A stretch of 31,107 nt of DNA, from the IMG/VR virus record IMGVR_UViG_2602041644_000001. One strand, 5' to 3'. Every line of letters begins with the position of its first letter. Positions within the stretch are counted from its first letter, which is position 1. Shown piece after piece: positions 1-31,107 of the stretch. The position numbers and the translations under genes were made by a program. This DNA is from a virus. Taxonomy: Duplodnaviria; Heunggongvirae; Uroviricota; Caudoviricetes. The notes below the pieces were generated by a model. That model saw nothing but the letters and a program-made list of their open reading frames with translations, was not told the origin of the DNA and did not search any database.

Positions 1-111
1 GAAACACAACGTGTTATCTACCTCCGCGAAGGCTATGAGCATGAGTGCTTCAGCCCGCTCGAACAGTTTCGTCGTAAATTCAGGGAAATAGAGGTCGGTC
101 ATGAGCACTAA
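1..111 (+). CDS. 3' end of an upstream phage gene (partial), function unknown
   Basis: Frame 1 is open from the window edge to TAA at 109-111 and overlaps the next start at 101. Too short to assign. Confidence 0.3.
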   Translation, partial: ETQRVIYLREGYEHECFSPLEQFRRKFREIEVGHEH

Positions 112-1042
112 ATTAACCGGCTATGTATGGGATGGTTGCGCTGCATCAGGCATGAAATTATCCAGCGTGGCAATTATGGCCCGCCTGGCTGATTTCAGTA
201 ATGACGAAGGTGTGTGCTGGCCATCAATTGAAACTATTGCCCGTCAGATTGGCGCGGGGATGAGTACCGTCAGGACGGCTATCGCACGGCTGGAAGCAGA
301 AGGCTGGTTAACGCGTAAGGCGCGTCGCCAGGGTAACCGCAATGCGTCGAATGTTTATCAGCTTAACGTTGCGAAGCTTCAGGCAGCGGCATTTTCTCAA
401 CTGTCAGATTCTGACCCGTCAAAATCTGACGCATCAAAATCTGACCCGTCAAAATTTGATGCGTCGAAATCTGGCAAAAAAGCGGGTTTTCACCCGTCAG
501 AATCTGGCGGGGATCCGTCAGTAAAATCAAAACATGATCCGTCAGATAAAAAACCTTCTCGTCCGGACGCTTCGCAACCGGACACGCAGACGGATGAACA
601 GGATTTTTTAACTCGCCATCCTGATGCGGTTGTATTCAGCCCTAAAAAGCGCCAGTGGGGAACGCAGGATGATTTGACCTGCGCACAGTGGCTCTGGAAA
701 AAAATCATCGCCCTGTACGAGCAAGCCGCCGAATGTGACGGCGAGGTGGTTCGTCCCAAAGAACCGAACTGGACAGCCTGGGCAAACGAAATTCGCCTGA
801 TGTGTGTACAGGATGGTCGTACTCACAAACAAATCTGCGAGATGTACAGCCGCGTCAGCCGCGATCCGTTCTGGTGCCGTAACGTGCTCAGCCCGTCGAA
901 GTTGCGGGAAAAATGGGATGAGCTTTCCCTGCGCTTATCACCGTCCGTCAGCACGTACACCGAAAAACGCGAAGACCCGTACTTCAAATCCAGTTACGAC
1001 AACGTGGACTACAGCCAGATCCCGGCAGGATTCAGGGGGTGA
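101..1042 (+). CDS. Phage replication initiator / replisome organiser (O-like, N-terminal HTH)
   Basis: ATG at 101 follows GAGGT. N-terminus resembles phage replisome-organiser HTH domains. The central region is encoded by tandem DNA repeats, as in lambda O where ori lies inside the gene. Confidence 0.7.
   Translation: MSTKLTGYVWDGCAASGMKLSSVAIMARLADFSNDEGVCWPSIETIARQIGAGMSTVRTAIARLEAEGWLTRKARRQGNRNASNVYQLNVAKLQAAAFSQLSDSDPSKSDASKSDPSKFDASKSGKKAGFHPSESGGDPSVKSKHDPSDKKPSRPDASQPDTQTDEQDFLTRHPDAVVFSPKKRQWGTQDDLTCAQWLWKKIIALYEQAAECDGEVVRPKEPNWTAWANEIRLMCVQDGRTHKQICEMYSRVSRDPFWCRNVLSPSKLREKWDELSLRLSPSVSTYTEKREDPYFKSSYDNVDYSQIPAGFRG
403..548. repeat. Iteron-like direct repeats (putative phage replication origin) inside the initiator gene
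   Basis: About 6-7 copies of a CCGTCA(A/G)AATCTG(A/G)C-like unit at roughly 15-bp spacing between 416 and 548, translating as SDPSKSDASKSDPSKFDASKSG. Confidence 0.55.
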
Positions 1043-30865: not shown

Positions 30866-31107
30866 ACAGAAAACCCCCAGCTAGGCTGGGGGTTCCGGAA
30901 AGCTTTCAGCTTTAAGCCAGTTATTAAAACCCCTTTTGATTTGTTAAAACACCTTGCGGTCTGGCAACTGCAAGTGTCAAACAAGAAATCAAAAGGGGGT
31001 CCCAATGGGGAACGAAAAGAGCTTAGCGCACACCCGATGGAACTGTAAATATCACATAGTTTTTGCGCCAAAATACCGAAGACAGGTGTTCTACAGAGAG
31101 AAGCGTA
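30866..31107 (+). mobile_element. IS200-family insertion sequence, left end (partial, continues beyond window)
   Basis: Perfect hairpin CCCCCAGC-TA-GCTGGGGG (30874-30892), a second structured leader, and the tnpA start. Exact left boundary not determined. Confidence 0.7.
31005..31107 (+). CDS. tnpA: IS200 transposase TnpA (Y1 HUH), N-terminal 34 codons only
   Basis: MGNEKSLAHTRWNCKYHIVFAPKYRRQVFYREKR matches the conserved IS200 TnpA N-terminus. Open to the window end. Confidence 0.85.
   Translation, partial: MGNEKSLAHTRWNCKYHIVFAPKYRRQVFYREKR

Follow-up and report, generated by a model that had tools for sequence, protein, structure and literature searches.

The stretch of DNA analysed here, referred to below as the window, is 31,107 nucleotides (31 kb) long and belongs to a temperate lambdoid phage. 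Over the first 2.2 kb it matches Escherichia phage vB_EcoM-689R6 at 100% identity and the Shigella serotype-converting phages SfII and SfIV at about 98%, and related DNA is carried by about half of the complete E. coli genomes. The gene order in SfII is cI, cro, cII, DUF4222, initiator, PerC-family regulator, Dam, LexA-like protein and RusA, with Q further along. The initiator gene of the window and the identifiable parts of its protein are as follows.

101-1042, plus strand: O-like replication initiator gene, an ORF of 313 amino acids that matches phrog_391 ("replication initiation O-like") over its full length (E=1e-135)
101-391, plus strand: N-terminal winged-helix DNA-binding domain, aa 1-97, with Pfam HTH_36 (PF13730) at aa 23-70 (E=4e-11)
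596-940, plus strand: C-terminal domain, aa 166-280, homologous to lambda O and phi80 gp15 (tblastn, BLASTP)
1013-1039, plus strand: C-terminal nonapeptide SQIPAGFRG, aa 305-313, identical at 8 of 9 positions to the C-terminus of E. coli DnaT (SQIPPGFRG)

The N-terminal domain is composed of helices and a beta-wing in the AlphaFold model, and its best Foldseek matches are winged helices of the MarR/ArsR type, a similarity that is generic by fold. Pfam identifies in it only an HTH_36/GntR/MarR-like winged helix and no origin-binding domain of the lambda O type. Solved structures searched by sequence with the initiator give weak MarR matches only, an NCBIfam search of the initiator returned no replication family, and BLASTP of the initiator against lambda O found no N-terminal similarity. 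The C-terminal domain shows 39% identity to lambda O and 35% to phi80 gene 15 by tblastn, and BLASTP aligns the initiator with lambda O at 31% identity over 216 amino acids (E=7e-26). The original prediction that this gene encodes a replication initiator is thus borne out by the full-length phrog_391 match and by a C-terminal domain 31-39% identical to that of lambda O.

Between the two domains the gene contains an array of short repeats, a spacer, one further repeat unit and a core, none of which is assigned to a strand.

401-475: five contiguous 15-bp units, putative iterons 1-5, with the 13-bp dyad-symmetric core GTCARAWTCTGAC (repeat computation)
start 401: unit 1, CTGTCAGATTCTGAC
start 416: unit 2, CCGTCAAAATCTGAC
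start 431: unit 3, GCATCAAAATCTGAC
start 446: unit 4, CCGTCAAAATTTGAT
start 461: unit 5, GCGTCGAAATCTGGC
476-493: conserved 18-bp spacer AAAAAAGCGGGTTTTCAC between units 5 and 6, with A6 and T4 tracts and a small hairpin
494-508: unit 6, CCGTCAGAATCTGGC, a conserved putative iteron adjoining the core
512-552: invariant core, candidate unwinding or helicase-entry region, with two GATCCGTCAG motifs 24 bp apart
395-583: whole DNA-constrained segment, putative origin, coding for the disordered linker aa 99-161 (synonymous-site statistics)

Tandem Repeats Finder reports positions 410-473 with a period of 15, 4.3 copies and 81% matches, and scores the array also at a period of 30 (88%), while the repeat search gives 6 copies with spacings of 15, 15, 15, 15 and 33. 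Both methods agree with the original prediction that tandem repeats are present. Its figure of 6-7 copies at 403-548 was a fair one, as there are six units at 401-508 and two partial unit copies GATCCGTCAG at 512 and 536, with CCGTCAG half-sites at 515 and 539; the extent is right for the repeats and too narrow for the constrained element, which covers about 395-583. The repeats are also, as had been proposed, in the frame of ORF 101-1042 and encode a linker of the SKSD type, the six units reading LSDSD/PSKSD/ASKSD/PSKFD/ASKSG/PSESG, with the array at aa 101-136 and the core at aa 138-151 of the initiator. The prediction did not include the dyad symmetry of the units: unit 1 is a perfect 6+1+6 palindrome, and every unit is internally dyad-symmetric.

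With up to two mismatches allowed, GTCARAWTCTGAC is found in the 31-kb window exclusively at the six sites of the array; first-order Markov random sequences of the same length contain 1.8 such sites scattered over 31 kb. Six sites at exact 15-bp phasing within 106 bp are far beyond chance. No second iteron cluster was found in the complete SfII genome, and GATCCGTCAG is confined to the core in both the window and SfII. Further copies of CCGTCAG at 241, 267 and 945, in other frames, were treated as chance occurrences because the heptamer is over-represented throughout the window. CCGTCAR occurs 26 times against 8.4 expected, mostly as CTGACGG on the plus strand outside the initiator gene, an excess that probably results from codon or dicodon bias. 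The codon of R48, which underlies the copy at 241, varies among homologues, CGC being the commonest (53%) and CGT the one in the window.

Positions 513-552 are 67.5% A+T (66-67.5% for the core), against a 95th percentile of 65% for the window, and are A-rich on the top strand, each GATCCGTCAG motif preceding an A-rich run. GATC (Dam) sites lie at 512-515 and 536-539, and the GAT codons of D138 and D146 are fixed at 100% in 72 homologues; since the whole core is conserved, the GATC sites are not statistically separable from it. Neither a DnaA box nor an IHF consensus was found in or near 395-583, and the match to the oriC 13-mer is poor. The spacer between units 5 and 6 contains on the minus strand (496-483) a terminator-like hairpin followed by a T-run, CGGGTGAAAACCCG CTTTTTTGCC, which is probably incidental, as its stem is weakened in phage phiP27.

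Conservation of this segment was analysed using 80 loci with relatives of the initiator, taken from Enterobacterales with one genome per species, and a codon alignment of 72 full-length homologues from many genera of that order. The protein sequence of the N-terminal domain (aa 2-97) hardly varies, and its third codon positions are saturated, with a mean entropy of 1.47 bits. Third positions of the linker (aa 99-161) have an entropy of only 0.83 bits (Mann-Whitney p=1e-12, a value that overstates independence as the homologues share a phylogeny, the N-terminal domain of the same sequences serving as internal control), and those of aa 129-151, in the core, 0.58 bits. Diverged pairs use the same codon at identical residues in 77% of cases in the array and 85% in the core, compared with 40% in the N-terminal domain and 44% downstream. 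At aa 107, 112 and 117 serine is encoded by TCA in 99-100%, and as summarised over the 72 homologues this codon reaches 100% at S107, S112, S133, S140, S143 and S148. In the core, P139 is CCG in 93% and V141 GTA in 96%, alongside the invariant GAT codons of D138 and D146, and in the spacer F130 is TTT in 100% and G129 GGT in 97%. At column 133 the third base is invariant though the residue is serine in only 56% of sequences, and columns in which serine has been replaced still carry nCA-like codons, namely CCA, GCA and TTA alongside TCA.

In phiP27 (N-terminal domain 60% identical), the last, conserved unit is read in another frame owing to a 1-nt deletion that precedes it, and GGTTTTCACCCGTCAGAATCTGG of the window (GFHPSESG) aligns with GGTTTTGACCCTTCAGAATCTGG of phiP27 (VLTLQNL); the spacer is kept save for this deletion. 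AlphaFold assigns aa 102-161 a pLDDT below 50 and no secondary structure, and this disordered stretch coincides with the constrained DNA. The near-fixed synonymous sites of the linker, the frame change in phiP27 and the disorder of the peptide together show, as far as comparison of sequences goes, that 395-583 is a cis-acting DNA element, selected as DNA and accommodated in a structurally tolerant linker. The DNA is conserved and the peptide is free to change, the opposite of the pattern (repeats lost, linker peptide conserved) that the original prediction had named as evidence against itself, and at least 2-3 units and the core are present in all type-1 homologues examined.

The number of units varies from about 2 to about 10 among relatives with nearly identical flanks, the common forms having 4-7. 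Variant P0015, which is 99% identical, retains two units and the whole core, the expected product of an unequal crossover between units 2 and 6. A low-copy variant in Salmonella (P0034) is present on 128 contigs, its locus lying next to icd (L086). Within the 10 kb examined, the prophage that contains it passes directly from Q and the holins to tail-fibre genes, and it appears to be a degraded, truncated remnant.

Initiators with type-2 N-terminal domains (MSSKLHGLVWEG...) keep the 15-nt period (autocorrelation 0.43 at lag 15), while their dyad units differ, for example CCAACGGTTGA and TCAAATATTGA, the changed bases being symmetric in both half-sites. The core is common to type-1 and type-2 initiators, with the GATCCGTCAG motifs spaced 24 bp apart in type 1 and 18 bp in type 2. 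Directly after their DNA-binding domains, the initiator of Stx2a_F403 has 3 x 21 bp of GGGGTGGGGCAGGAGCTGCCC and that of Klebsiella phage RothC has 4 x ~22 bp with TGCCATCTGATGGCA. In mEp460_4F5, an unrelated N-terminal domain is joined to a C-terminal domain of the window type at SRPDASQPD, just after the position of the core. Its palindromic repeats, 4-5 copies of the CATCGGGTCAAAATG type at a spacing of ~23 bp and in more than one frame (L089 945-1103), are followed by an A/T-rich tract with three 12-bp repeats TACAGAGAATACAAC, and the segment appears to be a second type of origin acquired as a cassette. Five types of binding domain are accompanied by five types of repeat, the repeat sequence co-varying with the DNA-binding domain. 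At many loci aa 1 to ~161-178 are found at 65-83% identity joined to other C-termini, and the N-terminal domain and the linker move together as a single module. In lambda, too, the N-terminal domain and ori travel together.

Explanations that place the constraint elsewhere than in a DNA element have to account for these patterns. A low-complexity SKSD protein linker produced by replication slippage, with copies alike through recent duplication, would suit the highly variable copy number, the disordered peptide and a period that is a multiple of 3. It is contradicted by the synonymous constraint and the frame-shifted copies and is very unlikely: synonymous sites are nearly fixed across genera whose sequences for the adjacent domain are saturated, the nucleotides persist where the amino acid is replaced, phiP27 holds the DNA in another frame, and the mEp460-type repeats occupy more than one. 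Selection on the RNA, through mRNA hairpins or an antisense or small RNA regulating translation or stability of the initiator message, could be read from a strand that folds much better than its shuffles (z=-6.4), from the terminator-like hairpin in the spacer, and from the symmetric base changes in the dyads, which would resemble compensatory pairs. There is little chance of this, however, as the fold signal follows trivially from short dyads with stems of 5-6 bp and loops of 1-3 nt, neither an Rfam match nor a promoter-like site was found in the repeat region, the number of units varies from 2 to 10, and the unit sequence tracks the DNA-binding domain and not an RNA partner. ORFs of 60 amino acids (342-524, plus strand) and 55 amino acids (363-530, minus strand) overlap the repeats, but synonymous constraint imposed by a gene in another frame is hardly credible and is contradicted by the frame survey, in which each alternative frame is open across the linker in at most 15% of the 72 homologues.

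A cis-acting element bound by the initiator or another protein, and yet not an origin, would satisfy the same conservation, for constraint at the DNA level shows a function and not which function. Such an element might act as an operator for autoregulation or a transcriptional roadblock within the gene, as an array for copy control (handcuffing), or as a recombination-promoting "module junction"; the weak A/T-rich tract and the position of the element, right at the border across which N- and C-terminal modules are swapped, agree with this. Even taken jointly, these candidates are improbable. The element agrees with ori-lambda in its position, in having dyad repeats ahead of a tract moderately richer in A+T, and in being inherited together with the DNA-binding domain. 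The complete SfII genome contains no other iteron cluster able to serve as origin, and phased dyad repeats that vary with the binding domain would be superfluous in a pure recombination junction.

Nucleotides ~395-583 are therefore considered, with good but not full confidence, to be the replication origin of the phage, of the lambda style and situated within the disordered linker of the initiator gene. We infer initiator binding and origin activity from position, architecture, covariation and modular inheritance. The element lies between the winged-helix domain and the lambda-O-like C-terminal domain, which is where ori-lambda lies: the annotated iterons of lambda are at aa 117-145 of O and are followed by a tract of 78% A+T and then by the homologous C-terminal domain. 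The parallel with lambda drawn in the original prediction is supported, the repeats being at the position equivalent to these iterons. The initiator of SfIV, an inducible and plaque-forming phage, is 98.7% identical to that of the window.

Winged helices of the MarR/ArsR kind typically bind dyads as dimers. Dimers of the N-terminal domain would bind the 13-bp dyad boxes, and six boxes at 15-bp intervals would build a nucleoprotein complex resembling the O-some. This complex may stress the adjacent core at 512-552, with its two GATC-containing 24-bp repeats, so that the duplex opens there and the host DnaB helicase enters. In a phage without a P protein, the helicase would be recruited through the C-terminal part of the initiator and host factors. 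Extra upstream units may raise the local concentration of initiator, and units would expand and contract by unequal crossover in whole steps of 15 bp (5 codons) with the frame kept. As the initiator gene belongs to the pR operon, rightward transcription would cross the origin, as in lambda. Two iterons and the A/T-rich tract are enough for unwinding in lambda (PMC7466680), and P0015, with two units and the core, fits this minimum.

Several features count against the proposed origin. With 66-67.5% A+T, compared with 78% in lambda, the A/T-rich tract is weak, and it is accompanied by no DnaA or IHF box. A spacing of 15 bp would place adjacent dimers almost on opposite sides of the helix, compared with a spacing of 20-24 bp in lambda. 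The core is common to initiators with different units, which implies that whatever reads the core is not the specificity-determining part of the initiator. The phage also encodes no loader for the helicase.

The closest known system is the ori-lambda of gene O in lambda, 434, 933W and other Stx phages, in which the origin is likewise located between a DNA-binding and a C-terminal domain. Both consist of several direct repeats, each dyad-symmetric, followed by a tract richer in A+T, in the window only moderately so, both vary in iteron number among relatives (4 versus 6 in lambda and Stx phages, PMC7466680), and both lie in a gene of the pR operon with a homologous C-terminal domain (31-39%). 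They differ in that the N-terminal domain of the window is an HTH_36 winged helix, another family than that of lambda O, and that the 13-bp dyads of the window are packed at 15 bp, whereas lambda has 18-bp iterons at 20-24 bp. The less A/T-rich tract of the window is distinguished by its two conserved GATCCGTCAG motifs, and the phage lacks a P gene and has an initiator tail that is DnaT-like, not lambda-O-like. In lambda, positions 39160-39183 (L090 561-584), to the right of the A/T-rich tract, TCGTCAGAGAATTCTGGCGAATCC resembles CCGTCAGAATCTGGCGGGGATCC at 494-516 of the window; this likeness may be due to chance, since the two occupy non-equivalent positions in the protein alignment.

The L17/DnaC module of phiP27, the "O" of Stx2a_F403 and the initiator of RothC share the N-terminal fold family and also have 3-5 palindromic direct repeats after it. 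The unit and core of the window are common to phiP27 at high DNA identity, while the units of F403 and RothC are unrelated, 21-22 bp long and spaced at about two helical turns. All three have other C-terminal domains and partners (DnaC, P, or a large replication protein). Theta plasmids and plasmid-prophages (P1 oriR/RepA, pSC101, R6K) similarly combine a winged-helix initiator, direct repeats and an adjacent unwinding region, and the conserved GATC in the presumed unwinding region of the window recalls P1 oriR and oriC. The iterons of these replicons usually measure 17-22 bp, lack palindromic symmetry, are bound by monomers and lie between genes, whereas the units of the window are dyads inside a coding sequence.

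The gene following the initiator (1045-1530) encodes a yfdN-like winged-helix and PerC regulator, with no P-like or DnaC-like gene adjoining, and no helicase or helicase-loader gene was found anywhere in SfII. This absence is observed although the initiator has a C-terminal domain homologous to the one by which lambda O binds P. A phage Dam gene is located at 1530-2183, two genes downstream of the initiator. SfIV has no Dam gene, and as it is inducible and plaque-forming, phage Dam is not required.

Profile comparison of the initiator with DnaT aligns only the last ~33 positions. A tail of the form ...GFRx is found in 50 of the 80 initiators, and the 2.5 kb downstream of these 50 contain no ORF resembling lambda P or DnaC. 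The lambda-O-like ...W..L tail, in the forms ...HWNSPEAWENTL and ...GWEDVL, is found in 7 initiators, each of which is directly followed by a lambda P homologue (E 1e-32 to 1e-44). The association of tail type with the P gene holds on two different C-domain backgrounds, and in the P-linked relatives homology with the protein of the window ends at ~aa 280-284, immediately ahead of the tail. The tail by itself gave no match in a PDB sequence search, and in a 2026 preprimosome structure DnaT is modelled only to residue 153 and the tail is not discussed. These patterns suggest that the tail of the initiator chooses the helicase-loading route. A more specific and tentative proposal, more doubtful than probable, is that P-less lambdoid phages bypass a phage loader, the core being read by host machinery while the C-terminal ~30 residues (SQIPxGFRG) mimic DnaT and hand DnaB-DnaC to the opened origin. 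If true, the tail would serve as a transferable switch between initiation that depends on P and initiation that depends on the host primosome, and would hint at a function of the unmodelled tail of DnaT. The observation on the DnaT-like tail offers a concrete and testable idea of helicase loading in lambdoid phages without P.

Of 5,426 complete E. coli genomes, 2,057 carry the element, which is 191 bp long and also occurs in Shigella serotype-converting phages and relatives across Enterobacterales. No paper describing this origin, and none containing the unit or core sequence, was found in the searchable literature, and the SfIV genome paper does not mention an origin. The element is best explained as an origin of the known lambda kind with an initiator of a different family, widespread yet undescribed in that literature. 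The origin and its specificity rules, in which the type of binding domain is matched to the unit sequence, may help to predict replication-competent prophages, to interpret the read depth of induced lysogens, and to design minimal replicons or origin decoys. The locus is also a clean, textbook-style example of a cis-element hosted in a disordered protein linker.

A plasmid collection was considered as a source of autonomous replicons and rejected, since the matches are megaplasmids or misassigned chromosomes with integrated prophages, and small "plasmids" with the module are circularised prophage fragments, such as e14, that are uninformative on replication. A relation to oriJ of the Rac prophage was likewise discarded: the K-12 match near 1.41 Mb is the truncated yfdO of CPS-53 in a rearranged strain, and the oriJ literature is unrelated. 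In CPS-53 of the E. coli K-12 type, yfdO (L091 3941-4648; also L003 and L004) keeps the origin segment and has lost the binding domain, and is thus a putative origin without its binder. At the far end of the window, positions 30872-30995 on the plus strand contain its only Rfam match, a full-length RF01405, the STnc490 Hfq-binding sRNA (146 bits, E=4e-30).
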